DNA of 64,000 nucleotides, taken from Pseudomonadota bacterium. Its GTDB lineage: Bacteria; Myxococcota; JACRCW01; JAFGSX01. The stretch is taken from assembly GCA_043821645.1 (NCBI GenBank), contig JBDRCO010000031.1:25322-89321 (forward strand), written 5' to 3'. The translations under genes and the position numbers were made by a program. Below the pieces are notes generated by a model. It was not told the origin of the DNA, searched no databases, and saw only the letters and a program-made list of their open reading frames with translations. Position 1 is the stretch's first letter. Every line of letters starts with the position of its first letter. Of the stretch, positions 6,001 through 37,315 are shown one piece after another.

Positions 6001-6214
6001 TTTCAAGGGCGATCCCACGGGCATAGGGGCCGAGCTGGCGCAGCAGCCGATGCGCGTGCTGACCATCATCGGCGGTCGCTGTACCAGCCGCTCGCAGCTG
6101 GCCTACGAGCAGAAGATGCGCGAGAACTGGGCGCTCGGAAACCTGCATAACCTTGGCATCATCATCGACGACGCCACGGGGCTGAGCGAGCTGCTGGCAG
6201 GCGCCTTCGAGTAG
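2..6214 (+). CDS. RHS/YD-repeat protein 1, 5'-truncated: Asp/Ala/Thr linker, internal MYXO-CTERM-like motif, second signal peptide, right-handed beta-helix, DUF6531-like domain, RHS core, ~260-aa C-terminal domain
   Basis: Frame 2 is open from base 2, so the true start is upstream. GCGC at 308-319, then a hydrophobic stretch and RRRR at 386-397. AILVAILALAPAARA|Q ends at 475. Also YPTIQAAID and NxxxxGGG beta-helix repeats, DPVDAATGE...GPLGNGWRH at ~2195, many YD repeats, and core end GRFLTRD...NPYSYAYCDPIRLVDTRG (to 5434). Confidence 0.9.
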   Translation, partial: TLLSDGSALVDAAAVVDATAASDSGTTADVSTSVDTGQRPDAAGTTDLGQADRVSPADSAAALDRWTTADVSSPVDAIVVATDSAGPATGDDDDDDAKVAADGCGCTAQRSGGMHTGIFGLALCALLVRRRRTRLFRLAQRPGAILVAILALAPAARAQLVVPDQYPTIQAAIDAGTGVAHVLVKAGTYDPFSVSGPGHPNLTGLIIEGEDGVIVQGSTTYTVNASQFPLVQLLKLDLSGGTFRVVNFDRVGVVTMEDCTVHDSPGEGIGVYDSDTVLLDHVSVRNTHRYNNGYAVSMNPVGNVIVVGGEYSDNTPSSATAYYGGLGITHGTGGSTAVSGAHFHNNKDTGLYVTSAISVAVHAVEASGNGGSGVLLVARDRVDVTSTVASGNGDNGVSAQADVVVVDDVEVMQNSGAALEVSLPTGTPGVISVHMLDAHDNFSSGAWLSAAYGTIIVENSVVQDNVGTHPGVYLTRFVEATVSGLQVLGNENTSGGGGGMFADPSTNDAVLHVETSLFEDNVTASGGGGLMWEARPRSRLAVCDTVFRHNSTGTNGGGIYSSTTNLALNSSSIALADVDFENNQGNSGAALFATRSCFTELQGGSVTGHTENPSTANSSALWFDTPARVSGVSIQGNSTDFDLEVGAKPSSAVDDYDLDAEGNWWGTTDLAQIAARIRDRADLSNRMRARYVQPLGAAPAAMGEGCHLVSCLGARMPLPVARDRGLQPSVGDPVDAATGELLLEETDLAFDGPLPLVWVRHHRTWLDLDALADGPLGNGWRHGFEYQLNVQGAVAVLTTPRGQIYRFIERDDGSWTLPDTEPEPLDLYLLSDGTLVVDPLSGQVQRFDAAGALVSVEDRSGNALTLEYTSGTLTHVEDGRGHRIDLEYSAGALTRLVASDGREVLYDVVGNNLVGVTDAEGGLTQYAYDNSGLLTRITSTTRPDGVVAWTQTFNSLGRVTQQRDGENRLTTIGYNTPSSGITRVTDAASARTHLTHLEERALTLHANPAGDAVTLSHDLSWRLVQITDRMGTTSTVSYDATRRVPATLSGPNGGTVQLQYQDQVQNIAGVDLRFTSPSRIDYPDGTHVSLTRDAVGRVTGLVDRTGETWTLSYNSRGQIAQVDDPAGLSESYTYDTDGNLTEVNGASTWTHDAAGRVTRIAHDDGAQVDLEYDALDRLTRVVDIDGRWVELAYDAAGELVGVSDTTGHGLGVTRDASGKVMAIVDRAGRSVDVTRDAVGRVATLTDAAGTTWQLTRNSNGAITEVTDSSGQVWALGRDAEGRVVGVDTPLGRHYELGLDLAGSLRSVSGPRGHLLSIARDALGQVESLLAPDGMRVAYTRQGGLITQALADSGESLLLVHDAAQRLAQLIDPLGSSWGFELRDLGGSLRSTDPLGRSRDLVFNARGQVESILFADAAQANLSYDHAGRLAHWQSSDGSDLTLAYDDLGRLTQAGDLSLSYNAVGQPLARTHQGVTVLAGYDDGRRLESLDVGGVLTVTYTYDTQDRLVSVSDDLGGASMGFEYDDDGRLVRETRSNGVATDWSWDTGSRLLSLVHGSLATLAYAYDEVGRVTGVDVSAPLDAEPSLVADDATWSHDAASQIVHSSYGSDARGRAVLVDDVAIAYDDADLATHLGSVELVHDALGNLVERVDGAVRVHLLTHPALGLHSVVAERDADTGLWLRFYVLTPGGRLLYSVSPLGEVRFYHGDRSGHVLLLSDGAGAVSDAYAYSPYGRLLGHVGSSDQPYTYAGLYGGRRAGVGELYHMGDRLYDAASGRFLTRDAIWPGPALPWAVNPYSYAYCDPIRLVDTRGTSAVDPASPDRATPLELMASQAPGLEPAASDMLDELAGDNASLRKWLRANPGLADLLAPADCPSCRKALSVAPGLKPVPTSLGFDQAFSTALAGTLSLGERQAMAAAWKTSRDLVTRGKGLGPLAHANEVARLRGHLARARTFKALDTGNSVAGAIMATLGEYEQARREGQGTAVTLLRSATAAAASWAFKGDPTGIGAELAQQPMRVLTIIGGRCTSRSQLAYEQKMRENWALGNLHNLGIIIDDATGLSELLAGAFE

Positions 6215-8412: not shown

Positions 8413-8428
8413 TGGCACAGCGATTGCT
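8413..8428 (+). promoter_or_regulatory. Sigma54 (-24/-12) promoter for the metalloprotease operon
   Basis: TGGCACAGCGATTGCT matches TGGCAC-N5-TTGCW; intergenic, ~130 nt before the start at 8560. Confidence 0.8.
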
Positions 8429-30238: not shown

Positions 30239-31306
30239 CTAGCGGATCTCCAGGTGCAGATGATCGGCGTGAGCCTCGTTGCTGGCGGGGGTCAGCACCA
30301 CGTCGAACAATCTGGCTTCCCGGATCCGCTGCACCAGCTGTCGCAAGAAGGCCTGGCGTTCTGCGGTGCCTGTCCAGTCGCGCTGCACCTCGATCGCCGC
30401 ACCCTCGCTGCGCTCGAAGCCCACCACATCGATGGCCAGACCACGGCCGTGGCCGCTGAGGGAACGCGTGCCCGCGATGCTGCGGCAGTTGAAGGTGCCC
30501 ACGTGTTGCACCTCGACCACGCCGGCCTCGGCCAGCAGCGCCGCCAGCCTGTCGAGCACAGGAGCAAAGCGGCAGGCGACCAGCAAATGTTCGGCAAAAC
30601 GTTGCCCGGCCTCGCGAAAGTCCACACCGTGCAGGGGGCTCGCCAGCAGCACAGGGGTATCGACCTGGCAATGCGTGCTGATGGGCAGCGGATCCCCCTC
30701 CCGGGCCGCCCTCGCCAGCGAGTCCTCCAGGTCGGGCCGGCTGTACTGCAGGCCCATCCTGTCCAGCTCCTGCGTGCACTCGGTGGCGGGAGGCTGCGTG
30801 CCGAGGTCTGGCAAGCACACCAGGCGGGTCAGGTTGTCGCGCAGCCTGAGCACCGTGGCGCAGGCATAGCCGGGCCGGCAGCCACTGGTGGTGAGGTGCA
30901 GGTTGCAGCGCGCCACGCACACGCCGTGCTGTGAGAAGCTGGGGTCTTCCATGCAGAAGGTCTGTGAGTACAGATCCCCCACACGGTCCGGACAGGTGTG
31001 CTGGCAGGGCAGGGTGCAATGTCCTCCCGGAAACCCCTCTTCGGGCAGCAGGCAAAAGCCGCCTTCGAAGATGCAGTCAGCATCATGCTGGCAGGGGGAG
31101 CCCACCCAGCCCGGATTGAAGCTCAGATCCGCAGCCGCGGGACCCAGGTCTGCCACCGTGGCATCTTCAGGCGTGGCCACGGCAGCATCGGGCTGGCTGG
31201 CGAGATGGGCTTGCTGTCCGGCCGACGAGGCCCAGAGCGCAAAGGCCCCAAGCGCGATCAGCACGGGGACAAGGGTCACTGCCGTGAGTCGCGGCCTCGC
31301 TTCCAT
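30239..31306 (-). CDS. Exported protein with Cys-rich module and Extensin-like C-terminal (M15/LAS-type) domain
   Basis: N-terminal hydrophobic segment; GTFNCR...SGHGRGLAIDV...HADHLHLE. Confidence 0.85.
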   Translation of the reverse strand: MEARPRLTAVTLVPVLIALGAFALWASSAGQQAHLASQPDAAVATPEDATVADLGPAAADLSFNPGWVGSPCQHDADCIFEGGFCLLPEEGFPGGHCTLPCQHTCPDRVGDLYSQTFCMEDPSFSQHGVCVARCNLHLTTSGCRPGYACATVLRLRDNLTRLVCLPDLGTQPPATECTQELDRMGLQYSRPDLEDSLARAAREGDPLPISTHCQVDTPVLLASPLHGVDFREAGQRFAEHLLVACRFAPVLDRLAALLAEAGVVEVQHVGTFNCRSIAGTRSLSGHGRGLAIDVVGFERSEGAAIEVQRDWTGTAERQAFLRQLVQRIREARLFDVVLTPASNEAHADHLHLEIR

Positions 31307-31364
31307 GCGCACCTCACATCCTGACTCGCCGAGTCTATGCCACAGGGTGAGGTCTGCGAGGGGC

Positions 31365-31390
31365 AAAAAAAAACCGCGGCGAACCGCGGT
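31365..31390 (-). terminator. Rho-independent terminator
   Basis: Minus strand reads ACCGCGG-TTCG-CCGCGG followed by T9. Confidence 0.9.
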
Positions 31391-31460
31391 GATAAAAAGA
31401 ATAAAGGGGCAAGGAACGGCTGGACCGGGGGGGGGAGTCCGCACCGAACCGCTGCCCCAC
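31365..31460 (-). ncRNA. Putative sigma54-dependent small RNA (~95 nt) with C9 loop, Pxr-like in design
   Basis: Bracketed by a sigma54 promoter and an intrinsic terminator. Long hairpin (GGGGCA/UGCCCC, CGGU/GCCG, GGACU/GGUCC) closes a loop of nine C; no credible ORF. Confidence 0.7.
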
Positions 31461-31470
31461 CCCACCTAAG

Positions 31471-31486
31471 AGCAGTATCCATGCCA
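31471..31486 (-). promoter_or_regulatory. Sigma54 (-24/-12) promoter
   Basis: Minus strand TGGCATGGATACTGCT has GG and GC at consensus spacing; an AT-rich tract lies upstream (31490-31680). Confidence 0.75.
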
Positions 31487-31679
31487 GGACGATGGAATAA
31501 AAAAAATGCTTATTATTCAATAGCCATTCAGAATCGACGGCAGCTGGGCTGCGGTATAGTTGTGGCGGATACACCACTGTTTCTGATGTGATCAGTAACT
31601 ATTTGTAATCGCTAATAAATAAGTATGTCGTAAATACCACGCAAAGAGGCAAGTTTACCTCATTTGATAACACTATGTA

Positions 31680-32165
31680 TTATTTGGATAAATCGATGAG
31701 ATTGCGAATGCTTGCGCTCAGATCGTCCGGTGTTGCCGAGTCCGCCACCCAGGCCACGCGTTCGTCACCCCGTGCCACAGTCGTCCATCGGTCAAGTTCC
31801 CTTGAAAAATCATAGGAGATCAGGATGGGCACCGCCACCAGGCCCGCCTGCCGGATGGCGCGGTAAATATACAGGCCCTGATTTTTTTCTAAAAAAGACC
31901 ATGCTTCATCAAGTGTTGCAGCATATCCATCAAGAACCTCTTGCGGGTCTCCCAGCAGCAGTTGACGAGCTGTTCGGTCAAAGCGCATGTCCAGAAAGAC
32001 CAGCTGGGTAGGAGGTTTTAACTGCAGTATCCTCAAGGCCGTTGCTCCATCGTGGGCCTGTTGGATCTGCAACCCAGGTAAAAAAGCCACGAAGTTCTCG
32101 AAGTACTCATTTCCATCTTCGACGATCAGTAAACTGGCGTTGAGTTCGTTTTTTTGGGGTATCAT
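31680..32165 (-). CDS. Stand-alone atypical receiver-domain protein
   Basis: LLIVEDG, AHDGATAL, VFLDMRFD, PILIS; no conserved KP. Confidence 0.75.
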   Translation of the reverse strand: MIPQKNELNASLLIVEDGNEYFENFVAFLPGLQIQQAHDGATALRILQLKPPTQLVFLDMRFDRTARQLLLGDPQEVLDGYAATLDEAWSFLEKNQGLYIYRAIRQAGLVAVPILISYDFSRELDRWTTVARGDERVAWVADSATPDDLSASIRNLIDLSK

Positions 32166-32177
32166 CTTGGGGTGTAT

Positions 32178-35015
32178 TTAACTCGCTACGTAGGGTAAAA
32201 AAACCACCACTTCCTTTTCCCAGGCTGCTGTGGACCGACGTACTTTCATGCTGCCCCCACACCTCTGCAGCGTTTCCAGGACCAGACCCAGGCCCCGATC
32301 AGGGGGCCTCTGTCTGACATCATCCATGGACAAGGTGGAGCTGGCCAGGTCCCCGACGGCCAGGGCCAGGCGCACGTGACCGGTGACGGGGTGGGTCTCG
32401 AGTGTCAGGTGGAGCCCAATTTTGAGTGGAAGTTTGGCTTCAGCTATTTCTGCCAACGCTGCATTTCTAAATAGATTATTCAAAATCAGTTGTAGTGATT
32501 CTGGGGCCAGGCTCAGGTGCAGGGGCCACTCCAGGGTGGAACTCAACTGCAAGGCCTCGGCAGGTGTTTGCGCCAGCCCCGGTTCGCGCAGGGTGGCCTC
32601 GAAAGTCCTGACAAACCAGCTGGCATCCAGGGGCGCGCTGCGAATCTGCTCGATCAGCTCCTGCATGCGCAGGTAGGCGTCCGTGTTCAACGCAGCCGAG
32701 GCGCGCTCGAGTGCCTGGCACACCCGAGTACGGGTCCTGGGGTGCTCGAGCCTGGCCTCGACGATCTGGTCTTGAATGCCGGCGAGGATTGAAAAGCCTT
32801 TGAATATTGGCGCAATGGAATCATCTTTGAAGCGCACGTTGAGGCGTGACCCGGCACCTCGTGCGAGTTCTTCGAGCTGCAGCACATGGTGCCGGAAACG
32901 GCCAGAGGGGCTGTCCTCGCCACCCTGGGCGAGCTGGCGGACCCGCTGCAACTGGGCCTCGGTGGCCTGCCCGGCGCGCAAGGATTCGGCCACACCCTGC
33001 AGGATCATGGTGTTGTGCTTGAGCACCTCGTGGTGGATGGAGGACAGCAGGCGCTTCACCTCCGCGCTGCTGTCGGGGTAGCGCAGCACGAAGCGCTGCA
33101 GATCCAGGCCGCCGAAGCGATACCGCAGCAGCCAGGCCAGGGCACTTGCCACGCCCAGAACCAGCAGCAGCGGGAGCAGCGCGCTGGCCCAGGCGGCCCG
33201 GGTCAAGGCCCCCTGCAGCTCTGCACGACGCTCGAGCAAGGCGCTGCCCGCAGGCAAGGGGTCCAGCACGTCCAGCTCGACAAGGCTGCGCAGCAGGTCG
33301 GGCAGCAGGCTCCAGGACAACCAGGCCGGGCCGTGGCGGGCTCGTGCCAGGTGCAGCTCCCCCAGGTAGAGCGCGGCCTCGGCGTCGCCCAGAGCCAGGC
33401 CTTGGTCCAGAGCGGCCTGGGCAGCGGGCAGTTGGCCCTGCTCGAACAGGATGCTGCCGAGCTGGGTATGGACATCGGCCTGCCCGGGATCCAGGCGCAG
33501 GGAATCCGCCAGGGCCAGGGCTGCCTCATCCAGCTGTCCGGCAGCGTGCAGGATTCGGCCCTCGAGGGCGCGCAGGCGGGCATCCGGGAGGTCCGCACCC
33601 AGGTGGCGGAGGGTCGCCAGGGCAGCGGCCGTTTCGCCCCTGGCAAGCAGCGCGCGGGCTCGGTTGAGGCCCTGCAAACCGCCCTGCCGAAAGCTGCCTT
33701 CAGATCCCAGTGCTGAGGTGATTTCTAATGTTGATGAAAGGAGTTCCCCTTCTTTGCTCAAGCTCTTGACGAGGTTTGATTGCAGGGCCTGGGCCTGGGT
33801 TCGGCCAGGCTCGGGGGGTTGGGCTGCGAGGTACTCCTGTACCAGCTGCAGGGCGCGCGGCAACTGCCCGCTGCGCCTGAGAGATTGAGCCAGCTTGAGC
33901 TTGAGCTCTATCCAGTCGGGGCGCAGTTGCAGGGCGCGGCCAATGAGGGCGATGGCCTCCTGCACCCTGTTGTCGTCCACGTGTTCGAGGTAGAGCTCGC
34001 CCAGCCGGGCGTGCAGGTCGGCGCTCGACTGGTCGAACACCAGGCCCCGCAAGTACTCGAGCTCGGCACGCTGCCTGTCCCCCTGAACCCGCCAGGCGTC
34101 ACCCAGCAGCAAGCGGGCCTCGCTGTAGCCCGGCGCCTGGGCCAGGGCCTGCTCCAGCAGCGCGACGGCCTCGCGGGGGCGTCGGCGCTCGACCAGGGTA
34201 CGGGCGCGCTCGAGCAGCAAGGCCGCCTCGTCGCCCGGGGCACTGCTGCCCGCGCTCCAGCCGAAGCGACGGGCCTGCAGCTCCACCTCGACGCGCCACA
34301 TGCGATCGCGCGCGGCGTCGCCAAAGGGGCCGTCGGCGTCGACCCGGCTGTACCAGGACAGGGCCTCATCCAGGCTGTCGTGGTCGCGGAACAGGTCGCC
34401 CAGCTCGAGCACCAGGGTCTCGTCGTCCACGGTCAGGGCCAGTGCCTCGCGGTAGAACTGCACCGCCTGCTCGAAGCGCTCGAGGCGCGAGGCCAGCCGC
34501 GCCTGGTGCCGGATCAGATCCGGGTCGTTGGCCTGGGCTGTCCGCAGGGCCGCGAGACGGCCCGCCAGGTCCTCGAGCTGCACCACATCCACATCCTCGC
34601 GCAGCACCTGGTCGACCACGGCCAGCACCACGTCGACGCGGTCGGGGGCCAGCAGCATGGCCTGCTGGAGCTGGGCCCAGGCCTCGGCGCCGTGGCCCAG
34701 GCGGACCTGCAGGCGACCCAGCTCGAGCACCACGTCCACCGCCTGTGGGGCCATCTCCTGGGCCTCGGTCAGCAGCTCCAGCGCGGACAGCAACTGGCCC
34801 TGCACGATCTCCTCGCGGGCCAGCCGCAGGCTCTCCTCGGCCTGCTTGAGCAGGATGTCGTCGAGCAGCTGCCGCACCTTGCTGAGGTCCTTGAGGCTGG
34901 ACCCTGCCTCGCTGGATCCGCCATCCACGGGCTCGTCTGGCGACCGCGCCCGGGCCGGGGCGGCGAGCAGGCAGACCAGCACGAGCAGCGCGCTCGCTGT
35001 GGGCAGGCGTGTCAC
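32178..35015 (-). CDS. Membrane sensor with extracytoplasmic TPR array and histidine-kinase-like C-terminus
   Basis: GTG start overlapping the upstream TGA; signal peptide ...LAAPARA; many TPR-like repeats; TM ALLPLLLVLGVASALAWLL; IHHEVLKHN H-box-like; ILNNLFRNA N-box; RGLGLV G-box. Confidence 0.8.
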   Translation of the reverse strand: MTRLPTASALLVLVCLLAAPARARSPDEPVDGGSSEAGSSLKDLSKVRQLLDDILLKQAEESLRLAREEIVQGQLLSALELLTEAQEMAPQAVDVVLELGRLQVRLGHGAEAWAQLQQAMLLAPDRVDVVLAVVDQVLREDVDVVQLEDLAGRLAALRTAQANDPDLIRHQARLASRLERFEQAVQFYREALALTVDDETLVLELGDLFRDHDSLDEALSWYSRVDADGPFGDAARDRMWRVEVELQARRFGWSAGSSAPGDEAALLLERARTLVERRRPREAVALLEQALAQAPGYSEARLLLGDAWRVQGDRQRAELEYLRGLVFDQSSADLHARLGELYLEHVDDNRVQEAIALIGRALQLRPDWIELKLKLAQSLRRSGQLPRALQLVQEYLAAQPPEPGRTQAQALQSNLVKSLSKEGELLSSTLEITSALGSEGSFRQGGLQGLNRARALLARGETAAALATLRHLGADLPDARLRALEGRILHAAGQLDEAALALADSLRLDPGQADVHTQLGSILFEQGQLPAAQAALDQGLALGDAEAALYLGELHLARARHGPAWLSWSLLPDLLRSLVELDVLDPLPAGSALLERRAELQGALTRAAWASALLPLLLVLGVASALAWLLRYRFGGLDLQRFVLRYPDSSAEVKRLLSSIHHEVLKHNTMILQGVAESLRAGQATEAQLQRVRQLAQGGEDSPSGRFRHHVLQLEELARGAGSRLNVRFKDDSIAPIFKGFSILAGIQDQIVEARLEHPRTRTRVCQALERASAALNTDAYLRMQELIEQIRSAPLDASWFVRTFEATLREPGLAQTPAEALQLSSTLEWPLHLSLAPESLQLILNNLFRNAALAEIAEAKLPLKIGLHLTLETHPVTGHVRLALAVGDLASSTLSMDDVRQRPPDRGLGLVLETLQRCGGSMKVRRSTAAWEKEVVVFLPYVAS

Positions 35016-36664
35016 TCGCCGCGCAGCTCCCTGACCTTGAGGCCGACCTGGTTGAGGCGCAGGCGCACCGCCCGCGCTCTGTCGGCGCTGCCCAGCAGCA
35101 CCTCGGCCATGGCCGCGAAGTCGCCCCGGCAAGTCCGGAACAGCTGGCTCAGGTACTGCCGCTCGACGTCGTTGGCCACGGCGTTGAGGGTGCGCCCGGG
35201 TTGCAGCAGGACGGTGTAGCCCTCGCTCCGAGGGGCCCCCGGCGGTGCTGCGGGTGGGGTGCGCACGGCGCTGCGCAACAGCTCGCCGACCAGGCCGGTG
35301 TCGACCTGCAAGCGGCGCGAGCGCAGGGGCTGGCCGCTGCGCAGCAGGTCCACGGCTCCAACCAGGGTGAAGCTCACCATGCTGTGCAGGACCATCGCCA
35401 GCTCGCGCATGTTCCCGGGCCAGGCATGGCGCCGCAGCTGCGACCACACCGGATCCGGCAGTGACAGCACCAGATCCTCGTCGGAACTGGCCCGGCCGCC
35501 CCCACTGCGGCCGAGCTGTGCGCGCAGCGGCGTCGTGGCAGCCAGGCCTGCGGCGCGGGCGATCTCGGCCTTGAGCGGCGCGTGGTCCGGGTGCTCACCG
35601 GCGCGGGCGACCAGGGTGCTGGCAAGGGCTGGAAGGTCGGCAGGGCGCTCTCGCAGCGGCGGCACCAGCACGCGCGCCGCGGGCCCCAGGCGCATGTACA
35701 GGTCCTGGCGAAAGGTTCCGGCCTGCACCGCCAGCTCGAGGGGCTGGTTGCTGGCGGCCACCACCTTGACGTCGACCGCTTGCTCGGCAGTGGCGCCGAG
35801 GGGCCGCACGCGCCGCTCCTGCAGCACCACCAGCAGCTGCTTTTGCACCTCCAGCGGCACGTTCTGCACCTCGTCCAGGAACAGGGTGCCGCCGTGGGCG
35901 AGCTGGAAGGCGCCCTTGCGATCGCTCACCGCGCCGGTGTACGCGCCGCGCAGCGCTCCAAACAGGTGCGCCGGCACCAGGTCGCGGGGCACCGTGCTGA
36001 GGTCCAGGGTGACGAAGGGGCCGCGGCGAGTGCTCTGGCGATGCAGCACGCGCTCGGCCAGAAAGGATTTGCCGGTGCCTGTCTCACCCTCGAGCAGCAC
36101 TGGCATGGAGCTGCGCGCCAGCACCGCCAGACGGCGCCGCACCGCATGCATGGCGCGGTCGCGGCCCCACAGCACCTCGCCGTCGTCGGCCTGCAGGGCG
36201 CGCTGTTCCAGCGCCTGGTGAATGCGGATGCGCAGGGTGTCCACGTCATCCGCGTCGAGCAGGTAGGTCATGGACTGCGAGGCCAGCTCGCCGCCTTCGT
36301 CGACCAGCGACAGATCCGCCTGGCTGGTGGCCAGCACCACGGGCAGGTCCGGGTGCAGGCGCCGGATCTCGCGCAGGATGGCCACGCCCTGAAAGCGCCG
36401 GGTGCGACGGTCGCTGGCGCCCGGGGCCAGCGGTAGCAGCTGCGCGGCGTCGACATCGAAGCGCATGTCGAGCAGCACCACGTCGACCTGGGCGGCGTGC
36501 TTGTTGAGGTAGCTCAGGGCCGCGGGCCCGCTGGCCAGGCGCGGTGGCTGGTCTGCTCCGGCGGGCTGCAACAGCTCGAGTTCGTCAAGCTGGTCCGCGA
36601 CCACCTGGGCGTAGTCCAGCCCGTCGTCGATGACCAGGATCCTAGGACGGCTCGACTTGGCCAT
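35012..36664 (-). CDS. Sigma54-dependent enhancer-binding protein (NtrC-like: receiver, AAA+, HTH)
   Basis: ILVIDD...LLDMRFD receiver; GETGTGKS, GAYTGA, LFLDEV, FRQDLYMRL, WPGNMREL. Confidence 0.92.
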   Translation of the reverse strand: MAKSSRPRILVIDDGLDYAQVVADQLDELELLQPAGADQPPRLASGPAALSYLNKHAAQVDVVLLDMRFDVDAAQLLPLAPGASDRRTRRFQGVAILREIRRLHPDLPVVLATSQADLSLVDEGGELASQSMTYLLDADDVDTLRIRIHQALEQRALQADDGEVLWGRDRAMHAVRRRLAVLARSSMPVLLEGETGTGKSFLAERVLHRQSTRRGPFVTLDLSTVPRDLVPAHLFGALRGAYTGAVSDRKGAFQLAHGGTLFLDEVQNVPLEVQKQLLVVLQERRVRPLGATAEQAVDVKVVAASNQPLELAVQAGTFRQDLYMRLGPAARVLVPPLRERPADLPALASTLVARAGEHPDHAPLKAEIARAAGLAATTPLRAQLGRSGGGRASSDEDLVLSLPDPVWSQLRRHAWPGNMRELAMVLHSMVSFTLVGAVDLLRSGQPLRSRRLQVDTGLVGELLRSAVRTPPAAPPGAPRSEGYTVLLQPGRTLNAVANDVERQYLSQLFRTCRGDFAAMAEVLLGSADRARAVRLRLNQVGLKVRELRGE

Positions 36665-37043
36665 GTAACTCCTCGAGCACCGCCTGGATGGCGGTGGACA
36701 CGGCGCGCAGATCCCCCAGGGCGCGCGCGCGATCGAAGTCCGCGGCCTCGGCCCGGGCCACGTGCTCCCAGGCCAGGGCTCGCGCCACGGTGCGACACAG
36801 GTCCGGGTGGGCGGGAAGGTGCTCGAGCTGCCCAGCGGCCTCGTCGACAAAGGCCTGCCACAGCGCGCGCGCGGACTGCACGCCTGAAGGTCCGCTGCGG
36901 GTTTGCAGCAGGGCGCGGCGCAGGGCCTGGTGCGCGAGCTCGGCGCTGGCATCCGCGGGCAAGAAGGTGACCGGCATGGCGAGGTGCTTGCCCAGGTCGT
37001 GCTTGAGGTCGAGCAACAGGTCCTCGAGTTCGGTCCTGGTCAT
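36642..37043 (-). CDS. Small helical protein with H-box-like motif (possible phosphotransfer protein)
   Basis: LLDLKHDLGKHLAMP resembles a HisKA H-box; its 3' end overlaps the bEBP start. Confidence 0.6.
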   Translation of the reverse strand: MTRTELEDLLLDLKHDLGKHLAMPVTFLPADASAELAHQALRRALLQTRSGPSGVQSARALWQAFVDEAAGQLEHLPAHPDLCRTVARALAWEHVARAEAADFDRARALGDLRAVSTAIQAVLEELHGQVEPS

Positions 37044-37315
37044 GAACCCACGCCCCTGGTTTTTCAGATGCGAAAACAAGATCGAGTCTATCATTTGTCG
37101 ATCTCCACGCCAGGGCTGTCGTCCCTGGCCTTGTCCGGACGGCCTGTGAGCCCAGGTCACCTCTCGTCAGCCCTTCGCGGTGCGAGCGTCATGCCACGGC
37201 GGCGCTGCGGCCCGCGGGGAAGCCCGGTCTTGAAGAAGCGTCGAGCGGTGCACCTCCGGGCAGCAGGCGCTACGGCGTGGCGGTGTGCTAGCATGCAGGA
37301 GGACCGAGGGCCGGG

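Follow-up and report, generated by a model that had tools for sequence, protein, structure and literature searches.

The minus strand of the window (the whole 64,000-nt stretch of contig JBDRCO010000031.1 analysed here) carries between 31486 and 31365 an element that we take, with high probability, for the genuine gene of a small regulatory RNA (sRNA). The explanation that we consider probable, read from the sequence, is a free-standing gene of about 96 nt that belongs to a class-specific, multicopy family with sigma-54-type promoters and whose product would act in trans, by pairing through a cytosine loop and independently of Hfq. The promoter motif, the loop and the hairpin are conserved at loci whose flanking genes are unrelated, and rpoN is present in the same genome (424 bits). 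The features of the locus, all on the minus strand, are the following.

31471–31486, minus: sigma-54-type promoter motif TGGCAT-N5-CTGCT (−24 GG, −12 GC), from the sequence and a motif scan
31365–31460, minus: predicted RNA of about 96 nt, its 5' end taken from the promoter geometry and its 3' end from the T run of the terminator (fold)
31406–31458, minus: hairpin 1 (hp1), with a long imperfect stem (fold, score with the covariance model R3, covariation over 11 copies)
31427–31435, minus: C9 apical loop, the proposed seed, closed by GGACU/GGUCC (fold, apex motif scan)
31391–31405, minus: single-stranded A/U-rich linker of 15 nt (fold)
31365–31390, minus: intrinsic terminator with a 7-bp stem (6 GC pairs), a UUCG loop and a T run (terminator scan, fold)
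31487–31679, minus: AT-rich intergenic region 5' of the promoter, presumed place of activator or bending sites (GC content per 40 nt)

Architecture of the locus

The minus strand from 31486 to 31471 reads TGGCATGGATACTGCT, in which the GG-N10-GC spacing fits the sigma-54 consensus. The promoter geometry places the predicted +1 at about 31460, 12 nt past the C of the −12 GC, in agreement with the original prediction, an earlier reading of the bare sequence that had also put the promoter, the C9-loop hairpin, the U-rich linker and the UUCG terminator on this strand at the positions where they were found (31486–31365). The G-rich arm of hp1 starts ten bases past the promoter motif and the returning arm reaches 31406. 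The stem-loop of the terminator, ACCGCGG-UUCG-CCGCGGU, occupies 31390–31373 and is followed by the T run to 31365 (a T9 tail); it is the sole terminator-like site reported by the terminator scanner between 30800 and 32300. On the other side of the promoter, the GC content of 31487–31679 falls to about 25–35% in parts, against 67% genome-wide. The predicted 96-nt RNA folds with −41.9 kcal/mol (z = −4.74, none of 200 shuffles equally stable) into two hairpins, as they had been drawn in the original prediction; a 101-nt version gives z = −3.45, and the full-length folds of the family copies range from z = −4.45 to −5.85.

Judged from the four genome assemblies of the class, in which the RNA and its ends are predicted, the element looks like a trans-encoded sRNA gene: it has its own promoter and terminator, lies between genes, is conserved independently of its flanks and contains no conserved reading frame. 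The earlier claim of a sigma-54-type sRNA gene is upheld at this level by a promoter, a hairpin and a terminator that are conserved at syntenic and non-syntenic loci. A coding function was considered and rejected. Open reading frames of 68–84 aa overlap the element, and at the protein level the loci match one another in nothing except the translated hairpin; the copies differ by insertions and deletions that are not multiples of three, and since those in the stems measure 1–5 nt a coding sequence does not fit.

A multicopy family in one class

The genome that contains the window (G000; 7.07 Mb in 140 contigs, 67% GC, 94.7% complete) holds three such loci with a sigma-54 motif, one in the window (contig C31) and one each on contigs C87 and C68. 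On C87 (about 224611–224795), TGGCACGTACCCTGCT is followed by a hairpin with an A+C8 loop and by another long hairpin, whose loop is C8 and whose tail is U7. On C68 (33662–33505, minus strand), TGGCACGGTACTCGCT precedes a C8 loop, and the loop and tail of the second hairpin are C6 and U8; the RNA expected from either locus would measure about 150 nt. A test independent of similarity led to the same three places: the motif TGGCAY-N5-N[TC]GC[AT] matches 179 times in 14.1 M positions of this genome and only three of the 179 sites, those of the three paralogous loci, have a run of at least seven C within 90 nt after the motif.

Ten genomic loci were found in all four genomes of this sparsely sampled Myxococcota class that are in the collection (G000, G001, G002 and G003), plus one on a metagenome contig. 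In G001, the one further genome that belongs to the same family, TGGCATACTCAATGCA precedes a copy of the two-hairpin form, and in the metagenome contig (L040) TGGCACACCGAATGCA precedes a member. The single copy of G002 carries TGT at −12. Five copies occur in G003; three of these form a tandem array with a spacing of about 400 nt, and every one of the three carries its own promoter motif and U run. In all four genomes a two-hairpin copy stands just downstream of a gene for a 93-aa 4Fe-4S ferredoxin (G000:C87:224035–224316, with counterparts in L011, L083 and L093), which marks the core orthologous locus; upstream of it, a Ser/Thr kinase gene is common to G000 and G001. By sequence, the window copy is a paralogue of this core locus in which the first hairpin has been kept and the second swapped for a plain terminator: its short UUCG terminator stands where other copies have a second C-loop hairpin, so described by an apex GGUG-YU-C6-8-ACC ending in a U run. 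This second hairpin is not universal in the family, four of the G003 copies lacking it as well.

Within the genomes searched, the family is confined to this one deep class of Myxococcota, as its sequence patterns and models indicate. The window shows the features by which the class family was defined (a sigma-54 motif, 20–45 nt, and an hp1 apex GRAYU-N-C7+-GGUYC, the C run being at least seven long). A 19-nt apex motif has ten matches in the four genomes, all at the RNA loci, against none for its reversed control, and the combined promoter and apex pattern finds nine loci, spread over 3 of the 401 phylum genomes sampled, and none with the control. R3, the covariance model of the 11 first hairpins, finds four of 151 phylum genomes, precisely the four of the class, and gives the window 57.9 bits. 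A BLASTN search with the element among 40 relatives returned G001 only, being too insensitive for the purpose, so that patterns and covariance models were needed; scans of genome contigs with the core pattern likewise returned only the G001 record. The metagenome scan gave three loci, of which L039 and L041 were not counted as members since they lack the promoter motif and score 14–16 bits with the model R1.

Some of the places met in these scans deserve separate mention. L041 (JAAUXT010147932.1) has on its reverse strand, at about 601–632, an hp1-like apex GGACU-C9-UUC-GGUCC in AT-richer DNA that has no sigma-54 motif, followed on that strand, some 200 nt further on (about 820), by a G10 run. 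L002 (G000:C127:26010–26068, minus strand) is a decayed copy whose 5' arm is identical to that of the window hp1 at 19 of 20 bases and whose loop reads CCUACCCC; it was not counted as functional, given its broken C run and the lack of a sigma-54 motif and of a terminator. It lies, at a contig end, about 240 nt upstream of an open reading frame for a bacterial enhancer-binding protein (bEBP; C127:24231–25823). A locus of G001 (contig C366, L099 2903–2975) was rejected as a member because it is the promoter and 5' untranslated region (UTR) of a protein gene; there a C10 run in the 5' UTR comes after a sigma-54 motif, the start of the product resembles a signal peptide, and the design appears as an mRNA leader. 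The tandem single-hairpin copies of G003 (contig C497, L082 6764–7650) recall tandem arrays of Pxr-type loci in some genomes of family f11, about 300 nt apart among the matches listed.

Conservation and covariation

The C loop is the most conserved part of the element. It consists of nine nucleotides, N followed by C8, in 10 of the 11 copies, and of C8 in the remaining one. Its closing apex GGACU/GGUCC is nearly invariant, with the variants GAACU/GGUUC in G002 and GGAUU/GGUCC on C68. In the promoter, the TGGCAY and YGCW positions are kept and the spacer varies at 10 of the 11 family loci, the exception being G002. The lower stems, on the other hand, are wholly different between genomes (for example GGGGCA.../...UGCCCC versus GCACGG.../...CCGUGC).

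In the alignment of the 11 first hairpins 76.6% of the cells are paired, against 67.0 ± 1.7 in shuffles (reached by 0 of 500), and 13 of the 23 pairs have changes on both sides (reached by 2 of 500). The score for covariation reaches 0.312, compared with 0.187 in shuffles (0 of 500 as high) and 0.046–0.132 in slid registers; an alignment made from the sequence only has compensatory changes in 7 of 13 pairs. The alignment behind these scores is model-fitted and thus leans to the structure, the copies are kin and the shuffle counts are not probabilities, so the numbers back hp1 without proving it.

Proposed mechanism and points that weigh against it

RNA polymerase with sigma-54 would bind the −24/−12 motif and some enhancer-binding protein, probably not the one encoded 3.5 kb upstream, would open the promoter. 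Transcription would stop at the UUCG-loop terminator, giving an RNA whose long hairpin presents the 9-nt cytosine loop. This loop would be the working part, pairing with G-rich stretches of mRNAs and altering their translation or stability. By analogy with what is thought for Pxr, the C-loop sRNA of Myxococcus xanthus, the RNA would act without Hfq, which was not found in the 94.7%-complete genome of the window.

Several observations weigh against this explanation, to which the kinship and model-fitting of the aligned copies must be added. The sigma-54 motif alone is weak evidence for a promoter because the window has seven matches against 2.64 expected (seven being reached by 1 of 100 shuffles), and hp1 alone is unexceptional in stability (63 nt in the window, z = −1.66, 10 of 200 shuffles equally stable; z = −0.81 at C87); for these reasons neither of them proves anything by itself. 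In a crude scan, runs of at least seven G at ribosome-binding distance were not enriched (36 sites, while the C-run control had 42). The same scan at plausible true starts gave 5 sites against 0. No upstream activator site common to four loci, and then to ten, emerged from the comparison of 8- and 9-mers with at most one mismatch and of 5-nt inverted repeats. Finally, a same-strand gene starts soon after the terminator both at the window and at C68, and read-through into it may occur.

Comparison with Pxr

To our knowledge, no myxobacterial sRNA but Pxr has had its function studied. In the available text of PMC5684412, pxr lies just downstream of the gene for the NtrC-like regulator PxrR and has a predicted sigma-54 promoter; the RNA forms three stem-loops, of which the third (SL3) contains an 8-bp segment that is conserved; function, though not accumulation, is lost upon a C-to-A change in the loop of the first (SL1), and M. 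xanthus is without hfq. According to the accessible parts of the respective sources, synthesis of Pxr needs pxrR and the kinase gene paired with it, pxrK (PMC10217877), its targets are still unconfirmed (PMC11928866), pxr is held to be an innovation of the Cystobacterineae (PMC11928866, PMC8538405), and pxr paralogues and tandem copies occur (PMC5568312).

In its design the window RNA looks like a close analogue of Pxr. Both belong to the same phylum, and the promoter has nearly the same sequence in M. xanthus (TGGCACGGCGACTGCT) as in the window; the conserved motif together with rpoN suggests that both RNAs have a sigma-54 promoter. In the M. xanthus locus a C7 run follows 43 nt later in the apical loop of SL1 (apex GGU-UC7-ACC), so that in both RNAs the first stem-loop would expose a C run at a similar distance from the promoter. 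Both measure about 100 nt and end in a stem and a U run. The differences are equally clear: the window copy and the two-hairpin copies have two hairpins where Pxr has three, the stems and the closing of the apex differ throughout the window family, and no pxrR/pxrK pair adjoins the window RNA.

The covariance searches separate the two RNAs further. The Rfam model of Pxr (RF01812, gathering threshold 80 bits) gives the M. xanthus pxr 129.2 bits as a positive control and returned no match in 31100–31800 of the window or in the own genome (E ≤ 10), nor in the whole window at the gathering level. Against 27 pxr loci, fetched with the probe printed in PMC5568312, R1 reached at best 11.4 bits, off target. 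The model of the second hairpin (R2) gave 12–14 bits on Pxr, confined to the terminator stem and with nothing on SL1, and a marginal best of 25.9 bits (E about 1e-3) on SL1 of the RNAs of family f30. R3 found 0 of 21 genomes of f11 and gave 8.8 bits at SL1 of Pxr. Membership of the Pxr family is thus not demonstrable with these models, and of the predicted "analogue or distant relative" the first half stands, as a likeness of design, while the second cannot be substantiated by RF01812 or by the models made here. The scan with all Rfam families that the original prediction had proposed ended in the same way, with no family that fits: the window has no match at the gathering level, and the weak, terminator-driven ones in 31100–31800 score 15–20 bits against gathering thresholds of 41–96.

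The C-loop design across Myxococcota

A pattern reduced to the bare design (sigma-54 motif, 25–55 nt, C7) matches in 227 of 401 Myxococcota genomes, compared with about 52 for the reversed control by a hand count of the table. By family, it occurs in 131 of 172 genomes of f11 (the Pxr family), 40 of 67 of f15, 14 of 17 of f30 and 6 of 7 of f22; the tallies include one unpublished genome (G195), on which no claim rests. Individual loci were drawn from about 150 listed out of 444 matches. Among them the C run starts 35–45 nt past the end of the motif and lies in the first apical loop at 14 of 14 folded loci of f30 (L068–L081), 11 of which have a T-run terminator by the script criterion, and it is apical at 8 of 8 folded loci of f15, f33, f34 and f36 (L125–L132). 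Most matches in f6 look like chance and were set aside, with an apical C run in 4 of 7 and a run of at least five T, taken by the script as a terminator, in 1 of 7 (L061).

Rfam, RF01812 included, recognises none of the RNAs of f15, f30, f33, f34, f36 and f4, which share design and size with the window RNA. They differ from it in the base of SL1 (GAAGYG...) and in an apex GGU-Cn-RCC, compared with GGACU-N-C8-GGUCC in the window family, and the models made here reach only 13–26 bits on them. The RNA is directly preceded by a bEBP gene of the same orientation in f15 (5 of 5) and f33 (1 of 1), in the manner of pxrR and unlike the window RNA, and the base of SL1 is GAAGYGC there as in Pxr; the upstream bEBP gene of f4 (for example L052–L055), f6 and f14 is divergent. 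Such RNAs were not found described outside the Pxr family in the literature covered, from which many subscription papers were absent, including one on the origin of pxr.

These data allow the tentative suggestion, which we would not put at even chances, that sigma-54-dependent RNAs with poly-C loops are an old module of the whole phylum, of which Pxr may be the one branch studied and the window RNA a deep class lineage that multiplied and left its activator gene. If true, this would contradict the published view of a recent origin of pxr within the Cystobacterineae and would predict a conserved G-rich target or partner common to fruiting and non-fruiting lineages. The analysis adds an unannotated, well-conserved family of Pxr design in a distant class, and the annotation of the window's genome would gain three sRNA genes. 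The wider pattern may matter more than the locus itself, with the design in more than half of the 401 sampled genomes and pxrR-pxr-like loci undetected by the Rfam model. Its confirmation would reopen the question of the origin of Pxr, offer many natural variants of the C-loop seed for finding the binding partner and make sigma-54-dependent riboregulation appear general across the phylum.

Neighbouring genes and alternative explanations

The genes around the RNA, identified by a domain search, are all on the minus strand.

35012–36952, minus: sigma-54 activator (bEBP; PF00158, E 1e-53)
32178–34982, minus: TPR protein
31680–32165, minus: 161-aa protein of no known family
ATG at 31305, minus: gene with an Extensin-like_C domain, downstream of the RNA

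The original prediction had described the operon upstream as encoding a sigma-54 activator and a sensor kinase and had taken the RNA for the output of this phosphorelay, as pxr is of pxrR/pxrK. The activator is there, upstream on the same strand, and same-design RNAs do adjoin bEBP genes in f15 and f33 (same orientation) and in f4, f6 and f14 (divergent). No histidine or sensor kinase, however, was found in the operon by the domain search of the window genes, the TPR and 161-aa genes taking its place, and 3.5 kb, which include these two genes, separate the end of the activator gene from the RNA promoter downstream. The bEBP–TPR–161-aa unit is conserved in G002 (L100 3406–8374) with 60%, 33% and 41% identity, from which it follows that the 161-aa frame is a real gene; there the operon is followed by a convergent gene and no RNA. 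The likely bEBP orthologue of G001 (44% identity) is on a contig without a copy of the RNA, and G003, with five copies, has only paralogue-level matches to the bEBP (the best at 41% identity and 165 bits). No bEBP is present in the fetched flanks of the other nine genomic loci, nor in at least 4 kb of flanks of the core orthologous locus and the other paralogue. The window bEBP ranks 37th of 39 against PxrR-like proteins, for which six bEBPs were used whose genes directly precede a Pxr-type RNA in other families; the two most PxrR-like bEBPs of the genome are C60:24595 and C52:141652. Since the genome has about 39 strong PF00158 genes (45 matches in all) in 7.07 Mb, a bEBP within a few kilobases is unremarkable. 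The RNA is accordingly quite unlikely to be the output of the adjacent operon, and the phosphorelay part of the original prediction is not supported.

A different question, concerning the classification and not the mechanism of the RNA, is whether it is a true and highly diverged homologue of Pxr, the sigma-54-driven C-loop sRNAs descending from one ancestral Myxococcota gene of which this class would keep one lineage. The shared design, with the C run 35–45 nt after the sigma-54 motif in the first apical loop, its excess over the control in the 401 genomes, the multiple and tandem copies and the genomes without Hfq on both sides (for M. xanthus, in the available text of PMC5684412) speak for common descent, as do the apex of the second hairpin, CGGUG-YU-C6-8-ACCG, which resembles that of Pxr SL1, and the intermediates in f15 and f33, which combine the neighbouring bEBP gene and the SL1 base of Pxr and are missed by RF01812. 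Because this model fails even on RNAs in a pxrR-pxr-like arrangement, its silence is weak evidence on ancestry and no argument against it. In the other direction stand the lack of significant similarity either way (RF01812; R1, R2 and R3), a stem and apex of hp1 unlike SL1 and the absence of a pxrR-like neighbour, and a C-run loop behind a consensus promoter is simple enough to have arisen repeatedly. Homology is therefore a serious possibility that we are inclined to doubt. Regarding the mode of action, the C loops might titrate a protein, such as a KH-type or other poly(C)-binding protein, instead of pairing with mRNAs. The loop is an invariant homopolymer of constant length, often carried twice by one RNA and found several times in a genome, as would suit such a decoy, and the lack of enrichment of G-run targets points the same way; but no candidate protein can be named, no search for one having been made, and other bacterial sRNAs with C-rich loops, such as RsaE/RoxS, RNAIII and RepG, pair with G-rich mRNA sites, which leaves the decoy unlikely. 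Least likely of all is a cis-acting leader or attenuator of the Extensin-like_C gene. This gene is on the same strand with its start codon about 60 nt downstream, the C68 copy also precedes a same-strand gene, and one of the G003 copies has an Extensin-like_C homologue at a distance of 2.8 kb, on the other strand. Yet the terminator is strong, with its T9 tail, the copies are followed by unrelated genes, no same-strand gene lies within about 760 nt of those on C87 and in G001, and the tandem copies of G003 are each followed by another copy; these last, having each their own promoter and U run, are not leaders of a gene. The free-standing sRNA gene with a C-loop seed that would act in trans remains the explanation preferred here.

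Other sRNA systems and minor observations

Outside the myxobacteria, the scattered paralogous genes, the conserved single-stranded segment and the individual terminators recall Qrr1–5 of Vibrio, which depend on sigma-54 and LuxO. Unlike the window RNA, for which independence of Hfq is proposed, the Qrr RNAs need Hfq; their seed is not known to be a homopolymer, and no Rfam Qrr model matches in the window. Closer in the presumed mode of action are RsaE/RoxS, RNAIII and RepG of Helicobacter, with exposed C-rich apical loops as seeds, often two per RNA, that work free of Hfq; RepG binds a G repeat. They are unrelated in sequence, have no Rfam match here and are not known to depend on sigma-54, and their loops differ from the pure C8–C9 run of the window family.

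The bEBP open reading frame of the L002 contig C127 and that of the window were considered as close paralogues and this was rejected. A homologue of the Extensin-like_C gene with 38% identity (L084 2375–3241, minus strand; G003:C20) accounts for the proximity noted above, 2.8 kb from the RNA copy at 6043 on the plus strand, and is possibly a coincidence. A further sigma-54-type motif, TGGCATGACGCTCGCA, is present at 37181–37196 on the minus strand, about 230 nt before the bEBP open reading frame begins (36952), and the bEBP–TPR–161-aa operon may itself be sigma-54-dependent; this motif also counts in favour of the otherwise unsupported link between bEBP and RNA. Five more matches to the sigma-54-type motif are scattered in the window, at 8413, 23925, 26597, 51881 and 62516.

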